From the NCBI GenBank assembly GCA_031367385.1, contig JANLPS010000071.1, positions 1 to 10,746 on the forward strand: a stretch of DNA of 10,746 nt. Reading direction: 5' to 3'. The notes beneath the pieces were generated by a model, which did not search any database, was not told the origin of the DNA, and was given only the letters and a program-made list of their open reading frames with translations. Below, in pieces: positions 3,415 to 10,648 of the stretch. Each line of letters begins with the position of its first letter. Within the stretch, counting starts at the first letter, position 1. Both the position numbers and the translations under genes were made by a program. Source of the stretch: Archangium sp. GTDB taxonomy: Bacteria; Myxococcota; Myxococcia; Myxococcales; Myxococcaceae.

Positions 3415-4938
3415 ATGAGCGTCTTGAAAATTCGCAGCCTGGCCTCGGCCATCATCACCGAAGCGAGCAGCAAGAAGATCATCGCCAGCGCTCAAGACGG
3501 GGGCAAGATCGACGCAGACGAGCGCGCCGAGCTCGACGCGTTGGCGGCTGCTCCGGCCGACCGTTTCGAGAGCCCTGCGGCCCGCCAGAGCTTCTTGGCC
3601 TCGTACTCGGCAGCGACCGGAGCGCCGTTGCCCCCCACCCCGCGCGTCTTCACGCAGGAGTCGCGCCCCTCGTGGACGACCACCTATTTCCCGATGGCCG
3701 ATTACTCGGGCGACAAGAAGGGCAGCCCCGAGTCGAACTTGTGGGCCGAGCACGGCGCCGCCGACGAATTCGACAAGGTGCTCAGCGCGCGTCACCTGAC
3801 GCCAGGGGCCCGCGAGTTCGAGCTCCAACCCGCCATCAACTGGATCGTGGGCAAGCCTTCGGGCGGCTACCTCGCCAACGGCACGGTCGACGAGAAGAAC
3901 GCCGAGGTCACCACCGGGCTCGACCTCAACGGCGACGGCAAGATCACCCCCAACGTGGAGTGGGACGTGATCGGCTACAACGGCACCCTGGTTCGCGCCA
4001 ACTCGGTCGGCAACGGCAAGGCCGAAGACTCGGTCGGGGTCAGCTGGTGGGGTCACTGCGACGAGGTCGGTGCCGCGGGCATCATGTTCCGCGAGCCGGT
4101 CAAAGACGTTGAGATCGACGGCGCCAAGTTCACGCCGGTGATGATCAAAGGCCTGCTGTCGATGATCTCGCAGAGCCAGGGTGGCAACACCGAGTACGTC
4201 GGCAGCCGCAACAACGAAGAGTTCGACTCGGTGCATTTGAAGAACGGCGAGCAGTTCTTGGGCCGCGTCGCCGGTGAGCTCAAGTTCGGCAGCGGCACCC
4301 GCTTCAACTACGACGACGCGACGTTCAATGGTGGCTTCGCGCCCGAGCTGCAGGTCGTCTTGAAAGACGGCACCACGCGAACCGTCAAGGGCTCAGAGGT
4401 CGACTCGATCACCCGTGAGCTGCGCAAAGAGAGCCCGGCGATGTACCACACCAAGATGATCGACTGGCTCGCCAGCGGCCGCCCCGCGGTGATGGACAAA
4501 GACGACGGCTTGCACTTGTGGAACTACAACTTTCACAAGCTCGAGGACACGATGTTCGAGAAGGGCCAGAAGCCCGATTGGGCCGACCAGGTCGACTTGA
4601 CCAACGGCTTCTCGGGCCCGGTGCAACCTGGCGACGATGTCACCTACGTCGACCGCAAGGTCACCCTCGGCGCGTCGGGTGCCGGCGAAAGCGGCGGCCA
4701 GGAGTCGTACCAGTACTGGATCGCCAAACGAAACGGCGAGATCGTGAATAGCGGCTGGGCCTCAGGTTCGTCGAGCCCCGACTTTCTCTGGCGGCCGACC
4801 CAAGCGCCCATCTTCTCGGGCCCGAACCCCCGCAACCCGTTCATCAAGCCTGAGATCGTGAAAGAGATTTACCTCCGCTCGCTTTCCGACGCAGACCGGG
4901 CGGCCGAGGAGCAGCGGTTGGCGGCGGTCGTTCAGTAA
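3415..4938 (+). CDS. Transglutaminase-elicitor (GP42/TGase_elicitor-like) family protein, ~507 aa, predicted Cys nucleophile, Ca2+-binding-like motifs
   Basis: Motifs occur in the order known for this family: PSWTTTYFP; WWGHC..GAAGIMFREP...IDGAKFTPVMIKGLL; SPAMYH...PAVMD.....LWNY; YQYW...NGEIVNSGW....PDFLW. The start is placed at ATG 3415, with AAGGGA about 9 nt upstream, rather than at GTG 3340. DLNGDGKI motif at 3922-3945. Confidence 0.75.
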   Translation: MSVLKIRSLASAIITEASSKKIIASAQDGGKIDADERAELDALAAAPADRFESPAARQSFLASYSAATGAPLPPTPRVFTQESRPSWTTTYFPMADYSGDKKGSPESNLWAEHGAADEFDKVLSARHLTPGAREFELQPAINWIVGKPSGGYLANGTVDEKNAEVTTGLDLNGDGKITPNVEWDVIGYNGTLVRANSVGNGKAEDSVGVSWWGHCDEVGAAGIMFREPVKDVEIDGAKFTPVMIKGLLSMISQSQGGNTEYVGSRNNEEFDSVHLKNGEQFLGRVAGELKFGSGTRFNYDDATFNGGFAPELQVVLKDGTTRTVKGSEVDSITRELRKESPAMYHTKMIDWLASGRPAVMDKDDGLHLWNYNFHKLEDTMFEKGQKPDWADQVDLTNGFSGPVQPGDDVTYVDRKVTLGASGAGESGGQESYQYWIAKRNGEIVNSGWASGSSSPDFLWRPTQAPIFSGPNPRNPFIKPEIVKEIYLRSLSDADRAAEEQRLAAVVQ

Positions 4939-4946
4939 GGCGCAAG

Positions 4947-5369
4947 TCACGCAGACAGCGCGTTGGCAATGGAGTGCGCCAGCGCGCCGTCGAACGTCGC
5001 CGGGTCGGTGTACAGGCGCATCGCGTCTTCGAGCCCGGCGAATTTTCGAACGAACTCCGCGCTCATTTGAATGAAGCGCGAGCCGGTGAGCATGCTCACG
5101 TGGCGAAACCGCGCTCGGTTCGCCTGGAGCCAGATTGCCCATTCTCCGCTGACGTCGACCGTCGCCGTTTGCACGTGGCGCGCGTCGATGAACAGCTCGA
5201 GCCGGCCTTGACCGACGAGGTCTTTGTTGAGCTCCTGAAAAGGCCGGCCCTTGAGCTCGCCGATGTCGGTGCCTGACAAGATCACCACCGTCACGTGCGG
5301 CGCTGGGCGGCGAATCACCAGCTTGACGTGAACGCCTTCGAAGAGAACGTCGGTCGGGTTCATCGCCAT
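4947..5369 (-). CDS. Stand-alone STAS/SEC14 (SpoIIAA-like) domain protein, 140 aa
   Basis: The alpha/beta pattern VTVVILSG...LELFIDARHV...WLQANRARFRHVSMLTGSRFIQM...MRLYTDPATF..AL resembles the small SpoIIAA-like proteins common in myxobacteria. Codon bias is good. The start could also be the ATG at 5363. Confidence 0.7.
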   Translation of the reverse strand: MAMNPTDVLFEGVHVKLVIRRPAPHVTVVILSGTDIGELKGRPFQELNKDLVGQGRLELFIDARHVQTATVDVSGEWAIWLQANRARFRHVSMLTGSRFIQMSAEFVRKFAGLEDAMRLYTDPATFDGALAHSIANALSA

Positions 5370-5402
5370 ATGGGCCTGCGTTCTAGCAGGTATGGTGCGC
5401 GC
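5370..5402. promoter_or_regulatory. Putative compact bidirectional promoter; leaderless -10 for the channel gene
   Basis: Plus strand: TATGGT (TAnnnT) at 5391-5396, exactly 6 nt before GTG 5403. Minus strand: TG-C-TAGAAC, extended -10-like, 10 nt before ATG 5369. Neither gene has a clear Shine-Dalgarno. Short inverted repeat CCTGC-N6-GCAGG at 5375-5390. Confidence 0.45.
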
Positions 5403-7727
5403 GTGTTCTCAGCCCTCGCGCTCGCGCTCTTCACTGCTGCCGCTCCTGCCCCCAAGAACGTCTACGTGGGCATGTACCTCTCAGACGTCTCTGACTTCGA
5501 TCTGAAGGCGGGCCGCTTCAAGGCTGACCTGCACGTGTGGGTGAAGTGGCTTGGTGACGAGAAGCAGGTGCCGGCGATCAGCTTCGAGAACGGAGAGCTC
5601 GACGAAAAGCAGGAGCTCGGTGTTGAAAGCGAAGGCGCCTGGCACTCGATGCAGTGGCGGGTGCAAGGCACGTTTCGCGGCGAGTTTCCGGTGCACGCCT
5701 TCCCCTTCGATCGACAGACGCTGCCGATCATCTTCGGGCTCAACGAAGATCTGGGTCGTCTGGTGCCCGACCTCGGCGCGTCTGGCATGAGCCCCCGCTT
5801 TTCAGTGAGCGGGTGGTCATACGAGCCGTACTTCTCGGCACGGGCCGAAGAGCGGGTCTATCGCTCTGATTTGGGCAGCGTGTGGCGTGAGGGCAAGAAC
5901 GCGAAGCAGCGGCTGACGACGTTCTCGGTCGAGATGCGAAGGCCCTTCGGCCCCTATCTGATCAAGTTCGCGCTGCCGCTGGTGCTCTTGCTGTTGATGG
6001 CATTGCTCGCCCTGTTTCTACCCCCGGAGCGCCTCGACGTGCGCTCGGCAATGGGCATCACCGCGCTGCTGTCGTGCATCGCATTTCACTACACGCAGGC
6101 CGACACGCTGCCCAACGTCACCTACCTCGTGGCGGCCGACAAACTGTTTCTCGGTTCGTATGTGTTCGTCGCGAGCACGTTGCTGATCAGCATCATCGCC
6201 TTTCGTTTCAGCGAGCGACGGCCCGAAGCGGCACGCAGAGCCGACCAGGTCGGGTTGTGGATGTTGCCGGCGTTGACGCTGCTGGGGCTCATCAGCCTCT
6301 TCGCTGGCGTGGTGCTCTCGCACGAGTCGATCGTCGAGCCGGGCGCGCCGATCAACCCGCACCTTGCAGAGCCTCTGCTGCGGGTGGCGGTGACCTCGCT
6401 CGATACGCTCGGCGGTGGTGGGCAGTTGCCGGCGCGGGCGGCGCAGCTCGTCGTGCGTGGAGCAGACGGCGCGTTCAAACCCGTGCTCGCGCAAGAAGCG
6501 CCATCGATGACCAACCCGTCGGTTCGCCTGCTGCCCAATGGAGGCATGCGCATTCGGTGGAAGCTCAGGCCGGAGGCCCAGTGGAGCGATGGCACGCGCA
6601 TCACGGCCGATGACCTCCTCTTTTCGCTCGGCCTGACCGCTGACCCACTCCGCAACGACGTCGAGCGCATCGACGATCGCACCATCGACGTCACCTACAC
6701 CGAGCGGCACAATGACGCGCTCGGTGGCTTCTCGGTCTTCCCCAAGAGCGCGGCCTCGCTTGCACTCGACGGGGGCCGCGAGGCACTCACGCGAGCCATT
6801 GGCGAAGGGGCGTTGCTCACCGCCGGTGCGTACACCTCGACAGCGTTCGAACCGGGCAAACGCGCGACCTTCGTTCACAACGATCGCTTCGCCGGAATGA
6901 AGCCGGTCTTCGAGAAGCTCGAGGTTCACCTGATGTCTCCACTCGAGGGTGCGAAGGCGCTCGTCGCAGGCGAGGTCGATGTGCTGAGCAGTCTGACCTC
7001 GGAGAGCTACGAGCTCTTGAAGGCCGAGAAGACAGTGCGGGTGCTGGAGCAACCCGGAGACATGCTCTGGGTGTTGGTGCCGAACCTCTCGTCGCTCCCG
7101 TGGTCGTCGCTCGAGAACCGCAGCGCGCTGCTCACCTCGCTTGACCGCGACGCGATGGCGAGGCTGCTCAAACCAGCGCCGGCACGGGTTGCTTTTGGCT
7201 GGCGAGAGAGCCCGCCCTACCCGCTTCCGCCCGCAGCGACGTTGGCGCACCAGTCGGTGAAGCTGTTCATCTCACCGGTGCAATCGAAGAGCGATCTGCA
7301 AGCCCGCCTCGCCGCGCAGATCACCCAAGACCTCGCGAAGATCGGCATCACGGTCGAGCTGGTCGAGCAGCCCGACGTGTTTGAAGCGGTGCAGCGCGGT
7401 GACTTCGAGGGGCTCGCGCTCCTCAACCGCGACACGTCAGACGTCACCCAGTTTCTCAACGTGCGCGACGTGTCAAAAACCTCGGGAGCCCACTACGACG
7501 AAGAGATGGTCGAGCGGGTCGAAGCAATTCAAGGTTCGCTCTACGTCGAACGGCGACGGGCCCTCGAGCTCGAGCTCCAAGAGGCCTGGTTCAAGCGACT
7601 GCCGATGCTGCCCCTGGTGCTCACCTCGCGACTCGCGGCGGTGCGGGCAGACCTCAAGGGGCCCGACTGGGGCGTGGCCGATTCACTGTGGTGGAACGTG
7701 TCGGAGTGGCATCTTCAGGCGCGTTAG
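5403..7727 (+). CDS. Prokaryotic pentameric ligand-gated ion channel (Pro-loop receptor) fused to a C-terminal family-5 ABC-type peptide/nickel solute-binding domain, ~774 aa
   Basis: Short signal peptide (M)FSALALALFTAAAP. ECD beta1-2 VYVGMYLSDVSDFDLKAGRFKADLHVWVKW. Pro-loop FPFDRQ (5700-5717). Pre-M1 RR and M1 YLIKFALPLVLLLLMALLALFLP; M2 RSAMGITALLSCIAFH; M2-M3 loop LPNVTYLVAAD; M3; M4 ending near 6317. Then SBP5 hallmarks PVLAQEAP, WKLRPEAQWSDGTRITADDLLFS, GAY..TAFEPGK, AGEVDV, R.ALLTSLDR, LAKIGITVEL, LPMLPL and terminal WNVSEW. Alternative start is ATG 5370; the ORF-track start at 5295 overlaps the divergent gene. Confidence 0.88.
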   Translation: MFSALALALFTAAAPAPKNVYVGMYLSDVSDFDLKAGRFKADLHVWVKWLGDEKQVPAISFENGELDEKQELGVESEGAWHSMQWRVQGTFRGEFPVHAFPFDRQTLPIIFGLNEDLGRLVPDLGASGMSPRFSVSGWSYEPYFSARAEERVYRSDLGSVWREGKNAKQRLTTFSVEMRRPFGPYLIKFALPLVLLLLMALLALFLPPERLDVRSAMGITALLSCIAFHYTQADTLPNVTYLVAADKLFLGSYVFVASTLLISIIAFRFSERRPEAARRADQVGLWMLPALTLLGLISLFAGVVLSHESIVEPGAPINPHLAEPLLRVAVTSLDTLGGGGQLPARAAQLVVRGADGAFKPVLAQEAPSMTNPSVRLLPNGGMRIRWKLRPEAQWSDGTRITADDLLFSLGLTADPLRNDVERIDDRTIDVTYTERHNDALGGFSVFPKSAASLALDGGREALTRAIGEGALLTAGAYTSTAFEPGKRATFVHNDRFAGMKPVFEKLEVHLMSPLEGAKALVAGEVDVLSSLTSESYELLKAEKTVRVLEQPGDMLWVLVPNLSSLPWSSLENRSALLTSLDRDAMARLLKPAPARVAFGWRESPPYPLPPAATLAHQSVKLFISPVQSKSDLQARLAAQITQDLAKIGITVELVEQPDVFEAVQRGDFEGLALLNRDTSDVTQFLNVRDVSKTSGAHYDEEMVERVEAIQGSLYVERRRALELELQEAWFKRLPMLPLVLTSRLAAVRADLKGPDWGVADSLWWNVSEWHLQAR

Positions 7728-7876: not shown

Positions 7877-10648
7877 ATGCGTTCTGCTCAGCCCTTCGTC
7901 GCCGCCGCGCGGCTTCTCACCGCGGTCACCCTCCTGACGGCCTCGGCCTCGTTCGGAGCGGCCGACACGTTCGGTCTGGGCGACGGCCACTCGAATTCAT
8001 TCACCGCGCTCACCGCCATCGACGTGGTCAACGCGTACGCTCCGCTCACGGTTACGGCCGCCGCGGCGACTTCTTCGCTCACCGTCGGGGCCACCACCGG
8101 CAGCGGCGCCTTCGCTGCGAACGATCTGGTCATGCTGTGGCAGGTCGCCGGGCACTCGGGAGCAGTCAGCGGCAATCAAACGGCGATCGACCTCACCGCC
8201 GGCGTCGCGGCGACGCACTTCGAATTGGGCCGAGTGCTCAGCGTGGCAGCGGGCAACATCACCTTGACCGCGCCCCTGCTCACAACCTTCACCGGCGGCG
8301 TCACCCAGGTCGTTCGCGTGCCCGAATTCACCACCGTGACCATCGCCTCGGGCCTCGGCATCACCGCCCCCGCGTGGAACGGCACGACCGGCGGCATCGT
8401 GGCGTTTCTCTCGCTCAACGGCATCGCGAGCGCGGGCACCATCGACGTCTCAGGCAAAGGCTTCAGGGCAGGCATCATCGCGGGCCTCGACGGCAACTCG
8501 AATTGCCTCGGGAATGACGGTGCGCCCCCCCAGTGGTCGACCAAGGGCGAGGGCATTCAAGCGCCCGCCTCGGCCGCAGTCAGCGGAGGCATGGGCAACC
8601 TCGCCAACGCCGGCGGTGGCGGCAACTGTCACAACGCTGGTGGCGCGGGTGGCGGCAGCCGAGGCCAGGGCGGCAACGGCGGCGGTCGCTGGTCTGACAA
8701 CGCAGACTTCGGTGGGCGCGGCGGCTCGTCAATTTTGTTGGGCCTCAAACAATTGCTGCTCGGCGGTGGCGGCGGCGCAGGCCACGTCAACCAATCGGTG
8801 GGCACCAACGGCTCGGGCGCTCCGGGCGGCGGCGTCATCTTCATTCGCGCAAGCACGATCACCGGTATCAGCGCCGTGAACGGCACGCTGGTGGCGAACG
8901 GCACGGGCGCAATCACGAACCCCGAGCAGTGCGACCCGGCCGGCGGTGGCGGCGGTGGCGGCACCATCCATTTGCGCGTGTCAGGCTCGGTCGCGATCGC
9001 GTCGACGCAGGCCAGCGGCGGTAAGGGCGGCGATCACAACGGCACCTGCGCTCAATTTCAGACTCAGGCCCAAGGTGTCGGCGGCGGCGGTGCGGCGGGT
9101 ACGGTCTTGTGCCAAGTCGGTTCTGGCTCGTGCAACACGACCGCGGTCGGTGGGGTCGCGGGTACCGCGGCAGGCGTCTCGAGCATTCGCGCACAGCCAG
9201 GCGGCGCCGCGCCGATCGTCGTGCCCCCCACTGGAGGCTTTTTCGTGGCCACCGTCACGGCCCCGACCGCGGGGAGCGCGACCACGAATCAACAGCCCAC
9301 GCTCACGACCTCGGGAGACCCGAACGTCACCGTTTTCATCTTCGTCGACGGCGTTCAAGTATGCACCGGCACCTCGAACGCCTCGGGCGTCTTCAGCTGC
9401 ACGCCTGCGAGCACCTTGAGCTACGCGACGCACTCGGTCACCGCGCAAGAGTCACCCACCAGCAGCCTCGCGCAGGCCGGGCCGGTCTCGGCGGCGGTGA
9501 GCTTCACCATTGCCCCTACGCCAGTCGTGACCGTGTCAGCGCCAGCAGTGATCAACTCCGCCAACGCGGCCGCCTACCCGGTCAGCGGCACCTGTACGAA
9601 CTTCGCCGGCACCGTGAGCGTCTCGGTCGGCGTGGTGTCGGGTCCCACGGCCTGCGTCGCGGGCGCCTTCTCGACCACGCTCAATGTCTCGGCGCTGGTC
9701 GACGGCATCAACATCACGGTCGGCGCGAGCCAGACCGACGCCGTGGGCACCGGCAGCGACTCGAAGACGACTCGAAAAGACACGGTCGTCACAGCTCCTC
9801 TGATCTCGACGCCGCTTGCAGGCACGCAGGTCGCGCCCAACCCGAACATCACCGGCACCAGCGAAGCCTTGGCCACGGTCACCGTTCGAGACACCACGTC
9901 GATGGCCGTCATCTGCAGCACCACCGCCGACAACCTCGGTGCCTGGTCATGCGCCACCACGCTCGGAGCTGGCACCTCAACTGTCGCGGCCATGCAGACC
10001 GATACCGCCGGCAACGTGTCGACAGATTCGCTCTCACGCACCTTCACGGTCGTGGTCGCTCCCACTGTCACGGTCGACGTTCCCGCGGTCATCAACGCGG
10101 CGAACGCGGCGGCCTACCCTGTCAGCGGCACCTGCACGACGGGCGCCGGCAACGTGATCTTCTCAGTGGGTATCATCTTCGGCACGTCGCCCTGCGCCGC
10201 CGGTACCTACGCGGGCACGCTCAACGTCTCGGCGCTCCCTGACGGCATCGGCATCACCGTAGGTGCCTCGCAGACCAACGTGGCTGGCACGGGCAGCGAC
10301 TCGAAGACCACGCGCAAAGACACCGTCGTGCTGCCTCCCGCGATTCTGGTGCCCGCGAACGGCGCCGATGTCGCCGCCAACCCGACGATCAGCGGCACCA
10401 GTGAGGCCTCGGCCACGGTCACCGTTCGCGACGCGTCGATGGCCGTCGTGTGCATCGCCACCGCGAATGGCAGCGGCGCCTGGAGCTGCTCGACCACCCT
10501 CGGCGTCGGCTCGTACAGCGTCACCGCCACCCAGGTCGACACCGCGCTCAACCCGTCGGCCGCGTCGGGAGTGACCAGCTTCCGGGTCGTGGCTCCTCCG
10601 ACTGTCACCCACGCGATCCGTATCGGGCCCTATGACGCAAGCGCTTGA
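7877..10648 (+). CDS. agmC: AgmC-like (adventurous gliding motility protein AgmC N-terminal domain family) Gly-rich secreted protein with bacterial Ig-like repeats, ~923 aa, probably C-terminally truncated
   Basis: Signal peptide MRSAQPFVAAARLLTAVTLLTASASFG. Family-typical motifs DTFGLGDG, VVNAYAPL, FAANDLVMLWQ, ITLTAPL, TQVVRVPEFTTVTI, WNGTTGGIVAF, GKGFRAG, KGEG and NAGGGGNCHNAGGAGGG. Then five Ig-like domains (PTL.../PNITGTSEA..TVTV...GAWSC...QTDTAGN.S). The symbol denotes family resemblance, not demonstrated orthology. Confidence 0.8.
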   Translation: MRSAQPFVAAARLLTAVTLLTASASFGAADTFGLGDGHSNSFTALTAIDVVNAYAPLTVTAAAATSSLTVGATTGSGAFAANDLVMLWQVAGHSGAVSGNQTAIDLTAGVAATHFELGRVLSVAAGNITLTAPLLTTFTGGVTQVVRVPEFTTVTIASGLGITAPAWNGTTGGIVAFLSLNGIASAGTIDVSGKGFRAGIIAGLDGNSNCLGNDGAPPQWSTKGEGIQAPASAAVSGGMGNLANAGGGGNCHNAGGAGGGSRGQGGNGGGRWSDNADFGGRGGSSILLGLKQLLLGGGGGAGHVNQSVGTNGSGAPGGGVIFIRASTITGISAVNGTLVANGTGAITNPEQCDPAGGGGGGGTIHLRVSGSVAIASTQASGGKGGDHNGTCAQFQTQAQGVGGGGAAGTVLCQVGSGSCNTTAVGGVAGTAAGVSSIRAQPGGAAPIVVPPTGGFFVATVTAPTAGSATTNQQPTLTTSGDPNVTVFIFVDGVQVCTGTSNASGVFSCTPASTLSYATHSVTAQESPTSSLAQAGPVSAAVSFTIAPTPVVTVSAPAVINSANAAAYPVSGTCTNFAGTVSVSVGVVSGPTACVAGAFSTTLNVSALVDGINITVGASQTDAVGTGSDSKTTRKDTVVTAPLISTPLAGTQVAPNPNITGTSEALATVTVRDTTSMAVICSTTADNLGAWSCATTLGAGTSTVAAMQTDTAGNVSTDSLSRTFTVVVAPTVTVDVPAVINAANAAAYPVSGTCTTGAGNVIFSVGIIFGTSPCAAGTYAGTLNVSALPDGIGITVGASQTNVAGTGSDSKTTRKDTVVLPPAILVPANGADVAANPTISGTSEASATVTVRDASMAVVCIATANGSGAWSCSTTLGVGSYSVTATQVDTALNPSAASGVTSFRVVAPPTVTHAIRIGPYDASA
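9521..10609 (+). repeat. Tandem duplication of a two-Ig-domain unit (540 nt and 537 nt) plus a 4-codon stub of a third unit
   Basis: GTCAGCGGCACCTG at 9581 and 10121; TCGAAGAC at 9761 and 10301. Unit starts are PVVTV (9521), PTVTV (10061) and PTVT (10598). Unit 2 is one codon shorter (DTTSM vs DASM). Confidence 0.9.

Follow-up and report, generated by a model that had tools for sequence, protein, structure and literature searches.

[quoted passage not shown] The frame is open throughout from a GTG start codon at 5403 to the stop codon at 7725-7727. This start is preferred over the upstream ATG at 5370 and GTG at 5295, which were discarded because the closest homologues (P0003-P0005) begin at the position equivalent to 5403. 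A preliminary description, made from the sequence, had read the frame as a complete pLGIC subunit, a Pro-rich linker and an SBP5, and structural comparison bears this out, with Z scores of 21.7 against GLIC and 26-29.5 against SBP5 structures; the Pro-loop, the four helices, the linker and the WSDG..TA.D and WN..EW motifs all lie where they had been placed. The domain order expected from Pfam was recovered in part: Neur_chan_memb (PF02932, E 4e-8) is followed by SBP_bac_5 (PF00496, E 5.5e-32, 111.7 bits against a cut-off of 32.4), both above cut-off, but Neur_chan_LBD (PF02931) found no match in the profile search of the fusion protein.

The window is a single 10.7 kb contig from a fragmented assembly, and at one of 79 homologous loci (L020) the frame is broken within the SBP, both of which would suit a fusion that arose in assembly or by accident in recent times. 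Against such an origin, the join (6300-6450) is spanned by single contigs in all four sequencing runs that were inspected, drawn from two studies; runs X1 and X3, but not X5 and X6, are marked as possible sources of the window. The bridging contigs are listed as differing in a single base, position 6459 of X5, and the stop or frameshift that had been feared at the join is not listed in any run. GC3 is steady along the frame, at 0.74-0.86. Moreover, 103 of 117 protein matches cover at least 93% of the fusion, and the trees of the two parts are congruent. The homologues rule out a chimera or accident, to which we give a vanishingly small chance.

The channel part opens with a likely signal peptide (5403..5450), a hydrophobic leader with an inferred cleavage site that is modelled as a helix over residues 2-10 and recurs in 103 of the 104 homologues scored. 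The beta-sandwich extracellular domain (ECD) follows at 5454..5942 (residues 18-180) and carries the Pro-loop motif FPFDRQ at 5700..5717. In the AlphaFold2 model four helices succeed the ECD, at residues 182-205, 211-235, 239-272 and 274-306; they correspond to M1 (5946..6017), the M2 pore helix (6033..6107, placed by alignment to GABA-A alpha1 and GLIC), M3 (6117..6218), and a short M3-M4 link with M4 (6222..6320). Residues 13-304 of the model (pLDDT 92.4) superimpose on GLIC (6hja) over 276 residues with an rmsd of 3.2, and also align to GluCl, GABA-A, DeCLIC, ELIC and sTeLIC with Z scores of 19-21. The hallmark residues of the superfamily, as described in PMC4795631, are all present, namely the Pro-loop proline, the pre-M1 arginine, the M1 proline, a basic residue at 0' and leucine at 9' of M2, and the M2-M3 proline. 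Among 201 pooled fused sequences, this core is kept almost without exception: P101 of the Pro-loop, P192 of M1 and P237 in all 201, R180 in 200, L223 (9') in 197 and an Arg or Lys at 214 (0') in 192. With GLIC, ELIC and sTeLIC the protein shares the ECD and four-helix fold (Z 19-21.7), a Pro-loop without cysteines and a very short M3-M4 link, and of the natural channels GLIC matches it best in sequence (E ~1e-17 to 1e-18). In contrast, at 17-19% identity, these channels stop at M4, whereas the fusion continues for another 450 residues.

In the usual prime numbering, the M2 helix presents D212 (-2'), R214 (0'), T220 (6'), L223 (9'), A227 (13') and Y230 (16'), the last being Tyr or Phe in 189 of the 201 sequences. 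The pore is likely cation-selective, because of the acidic residue at -2' and the hydrophobic gate at 9', 13' and 16', with the proviso that the pre-M2 motif is described as an unreliable predictor of selectivity in prokaryotes (Jaiteh et al. 2016, PMC4795631). The fused subunit is the sole pLGIC match in seven of ten genomes checked (of unstated completeness), which suggests that it forms a homo-oligomer. The genome from which the window comes also encodes two plain pLGIC subunits, so mixed pentamers are possible there. At the interface of the ECD, a patch under strong conservation (Y21, Y25, W46, K48, E75, W80 and loop C) could be the real agonist site. Loop C itself (5859..5897, with conserved S155, D156, G158, E163 and G164) is about nine residues longer than in GLIC.

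A Pro-rich linker (6318..6374) of almost constant length, with 32-39 residues between P289 and the start of the SBP in 98 of 100 aligned proteins, leads into the family-5 solute-binding domain at 6366..7718 (residues 322-772). This domain retains the whole fold, together with the SBP5 signature WSDG..TA.D at 6582-6614 and the C-terminal signature WN..EW at 7692-7709, but it has deletions of its own family and a cleft that departs from the canonical one. Modelled by itself (pLDDT 95.8), it aligns to family-5 structures over some 420 residues, with rmsd values of 3.2-4.4 and identities of 11-20%, the best match reaching a Z score of 29.5. It resembles DppA, OppA, AppA, NikA/NikZ, AgaA and AapF in overall fold and in the WSDG..TA.D motif, but differs from the family-5 proteins in having no ABC permease partner, in its own deletions and in its altered cleft residues. 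The structural matches mix binders of peptides, nickel, opines, sialic acid, glutathione and EDTA, and their top 50 rows fall within 3.5 Z units; fold similarity was therefore discarded as a guide to the class of ligand.

In DppA the two ends of the bound peptide are gripped by R383, at the carboxyl end, and D436, at the amino end (R355 and D408 of the mature protein; PMC12136057). When cleft positions were assigned by sequence alignment to DppA, the segments at the N and C termini being placed tentatively, R355, W386 and W405 turned out not to be retained in the fusion SBP and D408 was doubtful, R355 falling opposite a variable, gapped loop (622-633). The Trp that precedes this Asp is presumably a further peptide-binding residue of DppA, and a Trp occurs within 673-678 in two of the 201 fused sequences. 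At position 678 the 85 close relatives all have Thr, Ala or Ser, whereas 43 of the 116 distant sequences have Asp; D677, one residue away, is conserved in 73 of the 85, which would still permit contact with an amine. An N-terminal loop motif and a segment after helix 402-410 have been deleted. Judged from these residues, the ligand is likely not an ordinary, DppA-type peptide. As for nickel, the fusion protein scores 21.5 bits against TIGR02294, for which the cut-off is 393, and no His is among the commonest residues at 680-683, the stretch to which, by a tentative and unaligned mapping, H416 of NikA would correspond. The title of a PDB entry among the structural matches names H416 of E. coli NikA, the metal-binding His. 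As a statement on the ligand, the label of a peptide/nickel-type binding protein is not supported, since the fold ties equally with binders of peptides, nickel, opines, sialic acid and EDTA and the peptide-gripping residues of DppA are not kept.

Other positions in the cleft region follow subclade boundaries. In the 85 sequences of at least 48% identity that make up the subclade of the window, R346 is found in 82, R676 in 77, R743 in 84 and D760 in 81, whereas the corresponding figures for the other 116 sequences are 42, 42, 10 and 11. Such positions, fixed within subclades and differing between them, are as expected of ligand specialization, although the pattern can instead reflect recent common descent. 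From the Arg-rich positions, the ligand in the window's subclade is possibly an anion; the copy in the window itself has Ala at 346. Taken over the whole family, conservation of the cleft is poor, with a mean column identity of 0.55 against 0.70 for the ECD, the SBP residues that are invariant family-wide are mostly Gly, Pro, Trp and Asp of a structural kind, and the SBP tree is 1.56 times the length of the channel tree.

The same observations bear on a scheme in which a solute is caught and enriched by the SBP and then passed to the classical agonist site between ECDs, thereby opening the channel. A model of this kind was proposed for fused or neighbouring binding proteins (Tasneem et al., PMC549065, section 8), and the conserved interface patch, the long loop C and a short tether of fixed length all agree with it. 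However, residues of the cleft region change between subclades and the ECD patch does not, which is unexpected for one shared ligand, and a tight binder that is not emptied by an ATPase would presumably make a poor feeder. We regard a hand-over as quite unlikely.

The SBP was held by the preliminary description to be periplasmic, and the hydrophobic leader followed by four helices upholds that placement. The SBP is predicted to dock on the outer face of the channel: the whole-chain AlphaFold2 model has a pTM of 0.86 with the SBP in a defined pose, whereas a rough calculation gives some 0.60-0.64 for independent domains. When SBP and channel were submitted as separate chains the complex scored 0.34, which is weak support, against 0.00 for the best of three controls; at least 76% of contacts agree among the runs, and the partner pLDDT is at least 79. 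Of 157 solved complexes 116 attain the mark for such support, as do 2 of 215 mismatches, rates that apply roughly to the present case, and scores of 0.60 or below account for 18 of the 157 and for both of the mismatches reaching the mark. The proposed physical link between clamshell and channel has its support from models, namely the whole-chain pose and, weakly, the separate chains. In mutual information with APC correction (201 sequences; effective number 80), subfamily signal prevailed and pairs between the domains were not in excess (7 of the top 30, where 46% would be expected), a result that is neutral as to coupling. Of the four helices M4 lies at the greatest distance from the pore, and coupling of the SBP to the gate would therefore need a contact, which is so far predicted. 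A candidate docking face is the short loop F and start of beta9 (5760..5834), where L124, M129, F133, S134, Y140, P142 and F144 are conserved in 55 fused channel domains and not in 65 others (a de novo alignment of 120 rows); shared ancestry is an alternative explanation.

The SBP might instead be a structural module, without a ligand or indifferent to one, that packs on the ECD and stabilizes or tunes the channel, or binds another periplasmic protein, with the agonist acting at the ECD. The loss of the canonical peptide-binding residues and of two loops, the variable cleft, the replacement of R346 by Ala in the window's copy and the near-invariant ECD interface are in keeping with this, as is the N-terminal domain of DeCLIC, which packs on the peripheral ECD and affects gating kinetics (PMC9897478). 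It fits less well that the entire 450-residue clamshell is retained within a single frame at 72 of the 79 loci from genomes, 57 of which belong to Myxococcota, and down to about 32% overall identity, that polar residues of the cleft region are fixed per subclade, and that some genomes (G153, G219 and G251) keep two divergent copies, which would suit different ligands. We consider a purely structural role unlikely.

The architecture is shared by about 100 related proteins in other genomes, and of 181 full-length rows 180 have the channel ahead of the SBP. Within Myxococcota the gene has a scattered occurrence, and it is present also in spirochaetes, Bacteroidota, Melainabacteria and others, a distribution that lends no support to the suggested sensing of prey or kin by a myxobacterium; the carriers among the 79 loci are all metagenome-assembled, and no RNA data set is listed as carrying the gene. 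In the tree of the 120 rows, the 55 fused channel domains fall together in a single clade (support 0.978). For 70 proteins, the SBP and channel trees have 49 of 67 splits in common, none of 37 well supported SBP splits clashes with a well supported channel split, and the distances correlate at 0.94; this agreement points to a single old fusion, inherited jointly since. No stand-alone form of the fusion SBP appeared among 8000 scored candidates (245-898 residues) or the best 150 representatives. Matches at the level of the family profile (at least 287 bits) are fusions or short, partial pieces, with 197 bits for the highest-ranked SBP5 that stands alone; four SBP-only matches that group with the family look like fragments.

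Family-5 binding proteins usually work with an ABC permease and ATPase encoded nearby. The genome has 15 matches to PF00528, none of them on the window's contig, which agrees with the earlier remark that the window holds no permease. Among 80 DNA pieces around fusion genes (5-18 kb each, many stopping at contig ends) the permease profile matched in one, about 4 kb away on the opposite strand (L068). The 3926 ORFs of these pieces, with four clusters overlying the fusion gene itself left out, include no conserved neighbour, no family occurring in more than 9 of the 80, and the neighbourhood was discarded as a clue to the ligand. Independence of the fusion SBP from linked ABC transporters is thus supported. 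One might conclude that the protein replaces a transporter, its SBP supplying an ion or small solute that crosses the pore, given that SBP5 proteins normally serve uptake and that no permease is linked. The narrow hydrophobic gate (L9', A13', Y/F16') would suit small ions and not cargo of SBP5 size, though, and an SBP tethered outside the ECD ring would be distant from the pore mouth, making uptake very unlikely.

Our main reading, to which we give a probability of about one in two, is that the SBP is a tethered periplasmic sensor, possibly for an anionic ligand, that modulates a homopentameric channel. Each chain would contribute a Pro-loop subunit with a family-5 clamshell fused after M4, likely periplasmic and predicted to dock on the outer face, and five subunits would assemble into a pentamer bearing a ring of five clamshells. 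Closure of the clamshell on a small ligand, likely as a built-in sensor, would shift gating, the motion travelling to the gate via the post-M4 segment, loop F and the Pro-loop. In a more specific and tentative form, which we think possible but on the unlikely side, closure of five M4-hung clamshells docked on the ECD base, upon a specific small anion (a nucleotide, sugar phosphate, organic acid or metal chelate, for example), would open the pore from outside the textbook agonist site, with subfamilies tuned to different ligands. If so, iGluR-like logic would have evolved independently on the nicotinic-receptor fold, and the natural ligand and role of a bacterial pLGIC would become directly accessible, with a scaffold at hand for channels whose ligand can be swapped. 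Should the SBP gate or modulate the pore at all, the post-M4 segment and loop F would offer a new allosteric entry in a superfamily of drug targets. According to Jaiteh et al. 2016 (PMC4795631), what pLGICs do biologically in unicellular organisms is not known in a single case. The function of the fusion protein is wholly inferred; as the clamshell is a soluble domain of 450 residues that can be expressed alone, the question of its ligand is testable.

The parallel with iGluRs that had been drawn holds in that, as in GluR0, a bacterial-type clamshell is joined to an ion pore. It is otherwise loose: in iGluRs, whose tetrameric pore is unrelated, the clamshell is spliced into, or wired directly to, the pore helices, whereas in the fusion protein it is suspended from M4, next to an intact, conserved ECD that stands between sensor and gate and perhaps has a ligand site of its own. 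An ABC binding protein can be engineered to gate GluR0 (10.1101/2021.01.27.428399). DeCLIC, a Desulfofustis channel with N-terminal jelly-roll domains, likewise places accessory periplasmic domains around the ECD (channel Z 19.6, 6v4a), but these are N-terminal, beta-rich, calcium-binding, mobile and not clamshells (PMC9897478, PMC12664993); the 2022 DeCLIC paper (PMC9897478) gives it as the only solved member with an added N-terminal domain.

That binding proteins can be fused to pLGICs has been a familiar theme since 2005. As the preliminary description had supposed, no characterized fusion of an SBP5 after M4 was found in the literature searched (titles and abstract openings), though surveys of domain architecture may include one. 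Tasneem et al. 2005 (PMC549065) described N-terminal PBP-I and Cache fusions, and pLGICs beside stand-alone PBP-II genes; these too join a periplasmic binding domain to a pLGIC, with a proposed role in sensing or concentrating ligands, but the present fusion is C-terminal and belongs to PF00496, not PF13458. In the alignment file of Jaiteh et al. 2016, the channel begins at residue 391-511 in all 17 of the binding-protein-named entries seen. Members of the PBP-I-fused type are among the relatives of the fusion channel. Its closest channel relatives bear other clamshells N-terminally, TAXI in P0234, P0236, P0242 and P0246 and LivJ-type in P0252, P0259, P0295 and P0112-P0118, so that this group of channels has recruited binding proteins several times.

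The gene at 5403-7727 (+ strand) is a single open frame from GTG 5403 to 7727, in an assembly of 7.97 Mb and 65% GC in which the window is an entire contig (C228), and its start is matched by the start position in the closest homologues. Pfam places Neur_chan_memb before SBP_bac_5, each above its cut-off. In an AlphaFold2 model built from 100 aligned homologues (pLDDT 92.4, pTM 0.86), a leader helix is followed by a beta-sandwich (19-179) and four helices (182-306), and a linker then leads to a second domain (323-772). Compared with 48,161 solved chains, residues 13-304 resemble GLIC (Z 21.7, rmsd 3.2, 276 aligned) as well as GluCl, GABA-A, DeCLIC, ELIC and sTeLIC, and residues 322-772 resemble the family-5 solute-binding proteins (SBP5). 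Every feature that could be checked places the protein in the pLGIC superfamily, and it carries a true SBP5 fold. Single contigs span the junction in 4/4 sequencing runs from two studies, two of these runs possibly being the window's own source, and run X5 carries G6459C, which changes codon 353. The one-ORF pLGIC-SBP5 fusion of the preliminary description is confirmed by the domain order, the model, the structure matches and these junction-crossing contigs; an artefact is a negligible prospect.

The same domain order recurs in other genomes. Among 8000 scored candidates there are 117 matches, of which 103, counting the window's own, cover 93% or more of the 774 residues with at least 32% identity. 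Scanning species genomes gave 103 confirmed stretches, from which 79 loci, all titled as MAGs, were kept; both domains lie in one ORF in 72, six reach the contig end, and the homologue L020 (27-2367) has a frame break within its SBP part, either a sequencing error or a true break. By NCBI rank, which here rests on MAG labels that can be wrong, the 72 loci belong to Myxococcota (57), Pseudomonadota (4), Spirochaetota (3), Bacteroidota (2), and Altimarinota, Melainabacteria and Cyanobacteriota (1 each), with three unassigned. The gene is patchy, being present in 5/40 relatives, in 19/250 other genomes of the phylum (18/249 without G196, a genome flagged unpublished), and in 0/28 and 0/18 genomes of two well-sampled genera of the window's family.

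The two domains have been inherited together. In separately built trees of 70 proteins, 49/67 splits are common to channel and SBP, no well supported channel split contradicts any of the 37 SBP splits with support of at least 0.95, and patristic distances correlate at 0.94, the SBP tree being 1.56 times longer. In a 120-row channel tree, rooted arbitrarily on a distant paralogue, 55/55 fused channel domains form one clade (FastTree support 0.978). Its sister group (n=16) holds short stand-alone channels together with channels bearing an N-terminal TAXI (PF16868) clamshell (proteins P0234, P0236, P0242 and P0246, 631-650 aa), and LivJ-type N-terminal fusions fall farther out. The SBPs of the fusion proteins likewise form their own clade (support 1.0), and no free-standing member was found, either among 8000 scored candidates or among the best 150 representatives. 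These phylogenies indicate that the fusion is a single old event. With TAXI, LivJ-type and SBP5 fusions in the tree, this channel group has acquired binding proteins of at least three kinds, SBP5 alone being C-terminal. Three further proteins (P0164, P0168 and P0171, 863-885 aa) have an SBP5 at the C-terminus; the roughly 400 residues ahead of it match neither a Pfam family nor the channel profile.

The accessible part of Tasneem et al. (PMC549065) describes PBP-I and MCP-N/Cache fusions to pLGICs and neighbouring stand-alone PBP-II genes, and proposes chemoreception; those fusions are N-terminal, whereas the SBP5 here is C-terminal, following M4. The additions spoken of in the available portions of the DeCLIC papers (PMC9897478, PMC12664993) are also N-terminal only, in contrast to this post-M4 domain. 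Jaiteh 2016 (PMC4795631), in its available portion, mentions but discards C-terminal regions past M4, and in 17/17 distinct 'ABC', 'extracellular' or 'periplasmic' entries of its alignment file the channel starts at residue 391-511. A 171-member ESM Atlas cluster is automatically named for both domains (score 0.99), and the architecture is therefore visible in databases, though as far as found apparently unstudied. In line with the preliminary description, the literature searched yielded no report of a post-M4 SBP5 fusion to a pLGIC; Hu et al. 2020, which may bear on it, lies outside this coverage.

The 201 pooled full-length rows used for residue counts depend on one another and amount to an effective number of about 80. 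Six channel positions are each retained in 192-201 of them: the prolines of the Pro-loop, M1 and M2-M3, the pre-M1 Arg, the basic residue at 0' and the Leu at 9'. An acidic residue (Asp or Glu) occupies -2' in 183/201 and an aromatic one (Tyr or Phe) 16' in 189/201, so the pore leans towards cation selectivity with a hydrophobic gate; Jaiteh 2016 (PMC4795631), in the part available, cautions that prokaryotic selectivity cannot be read dependably from such motifs. In 103/104 homologues scored, beta1 comes after a hydrophobic leader. With four membrane helices, the established topology brings the C-terminus to the extracellular domain (ECD) side, which is where the SBP had been placed. The fused subunit is the only pLGIC match in 7/10 genomes checked, of unstated completeness, which favours a homopentamer. 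Counting otherwise, the window's genome holds two plain subunits with 23-29% identity to the channel part: one of 318 aa (locus L095:7583-8539, - strand; 29%), which by eye directly follows a LysR-like ORF, and one of 307 aa (locus L096:9998-10921, - strand; 23%), by eye near CheA-like chemotaxis and Ser/Thr kinase-like ORFs.

Docking of the SBP on the channel is predicted by modelling. By rough calculation, independent domains would give a pTM of 0.60-0.64, and the 0.86 obtained across the two requires the error between them to be about 6 A. With two channel domains (18-290) and the SBP as its own chain, the score was 0.34 vs 0.00 for the best control, at least 76% of contacts agreed between runs and partner pLDDT was at least 79. 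This mark is reached by 116/157 solved complexes and 2/215 mismatches, or, at 0.60 or below, by 18/157 solved complexes and both mismatches, a calibration only roughly valid for this job; the test weakly backs the predicted contact. PDB searches showed no solved pLGIC-SBP5 complex, and coevolution analysis of the two domains was uninformative either way. Linker length is nearly fixed among homologues. Channel residues conserved only in fused proteins cluster in the short loop F and the beta9 start (L124-F144), which from known anatomy would lie where a post-M4 domain arrives, and in the Pro-loop region. The most likely reading, at about 0.5, is that the SBP would dock in the periplasm as a sensor and shift channel gating when it closes; to call the protein a clamshell-gated pLGIC is more tentative. 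Relative to other channel domains, fused ones also conserve an interface patch (Y21, K48, E75, W80, E163), a possible agonist site of the channel itself, and a SBP that hands its ligand over to the ECD site is a distinctly unlikely arrangement.

Folded alone, the SBP part (pLDDT 95.8) resembles many SBP5 structures (about 420 residues aligned, Z 26-29.5); these matches span different ligands, so the fold names none. E. coli DppA binds dipeptide ends through R383 and D436 (mature 355 and 408; accessible part of PMC12136057). In alignment to it, R383 falls on a variable gapped loop and D436 on T678, Trp occurs within 673-678 in 2/201 rows, and the 22 residues that follow the first helix in DppA are missing. 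Similar replacements in HbpA2 were taken as incompatible with peptide binding (available portion of PMC3295651). Counting against a non-peptide reading, D677, one residue off the DppA Asp position, is kept in 73/85 close relatives, and 43/116 distant rows have Asp at 678. By the residues tested, the SBP part is not a DppA-type peptide binder: the family-5 assignment of the preliminary description stands on fold and Pfam, and its peptide-type ligand is not supported. The 85 rows nearest the window keep R345 (75), R346 (82), R676 (77), R743 (84) and D760 (81), and other residues prevail there in the remaining 116. Residues 675-678 line the cleft by alignment to DppA, and R345, R346, R743 and D760 presumably line it too. 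This pattern would fit a family whose subfamilies differ in ligand, the window's subclade possibly binding an anion; simple recent descent also fits, and a structural, ligand-less SBP module seems rather unlikely. The window's own copy has Ala346 (6438-6440) where 82/85 close relatives have Arg.

The fusion gene has no linked transporter. All 15 ABC-permease matches of the genome lie on other contigs, in line with the absence of a permease gene from the window noted earlier, and a profile made from those 15 hits 1/80 DNA pieces (the window plus 79 loci), at locus L068, about 4 kb from the fusion gene on the opposite strand. Uptake through the pore is a very improbable role. With four clusters of frames overlapping the fusion gene set aside, no family of neighbouring genes is shared by more than 9/80 pieces. 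Within the window, the fusion gene is accompanied by genes for secreted or surface proteins and by one small ORF. A large surface protein (1-2937, - strand), running off the contig end, combines a Gly-rich, DAGG-repeat stretch with ten divergent InlB B-repeat domains; a transglutaminase-elicitor match protein (3415-4938, + strand; PF16683, E 1e-7) has a weak EF-hand match; and an AgmC N-terminal domain protein (7877-10648, + strand; NF047640, 303 bits, above cut-off) has bacterial Ig-like repeats. The 140-aa SpoIIAA-like ORF (4947-5369, - strand), below cut-off, is oriented head to head to the fusion gene, their starts only 33 bases apart, and is not a recurring neighbour in the 80 pieces. Elsewhere in the window's genome, contig C382 (7693-10848, - strand) encodes a 1052-residue chemoreceptor-like protein with HAMP/MCP-type repeats, judged by eye, and a C-terminal SBP_bac_5 (E 4e-66); this SBP5 would be cytoplasmic, after the signalling domain, and would represent a second non-transport use of SBP5 in the genome.
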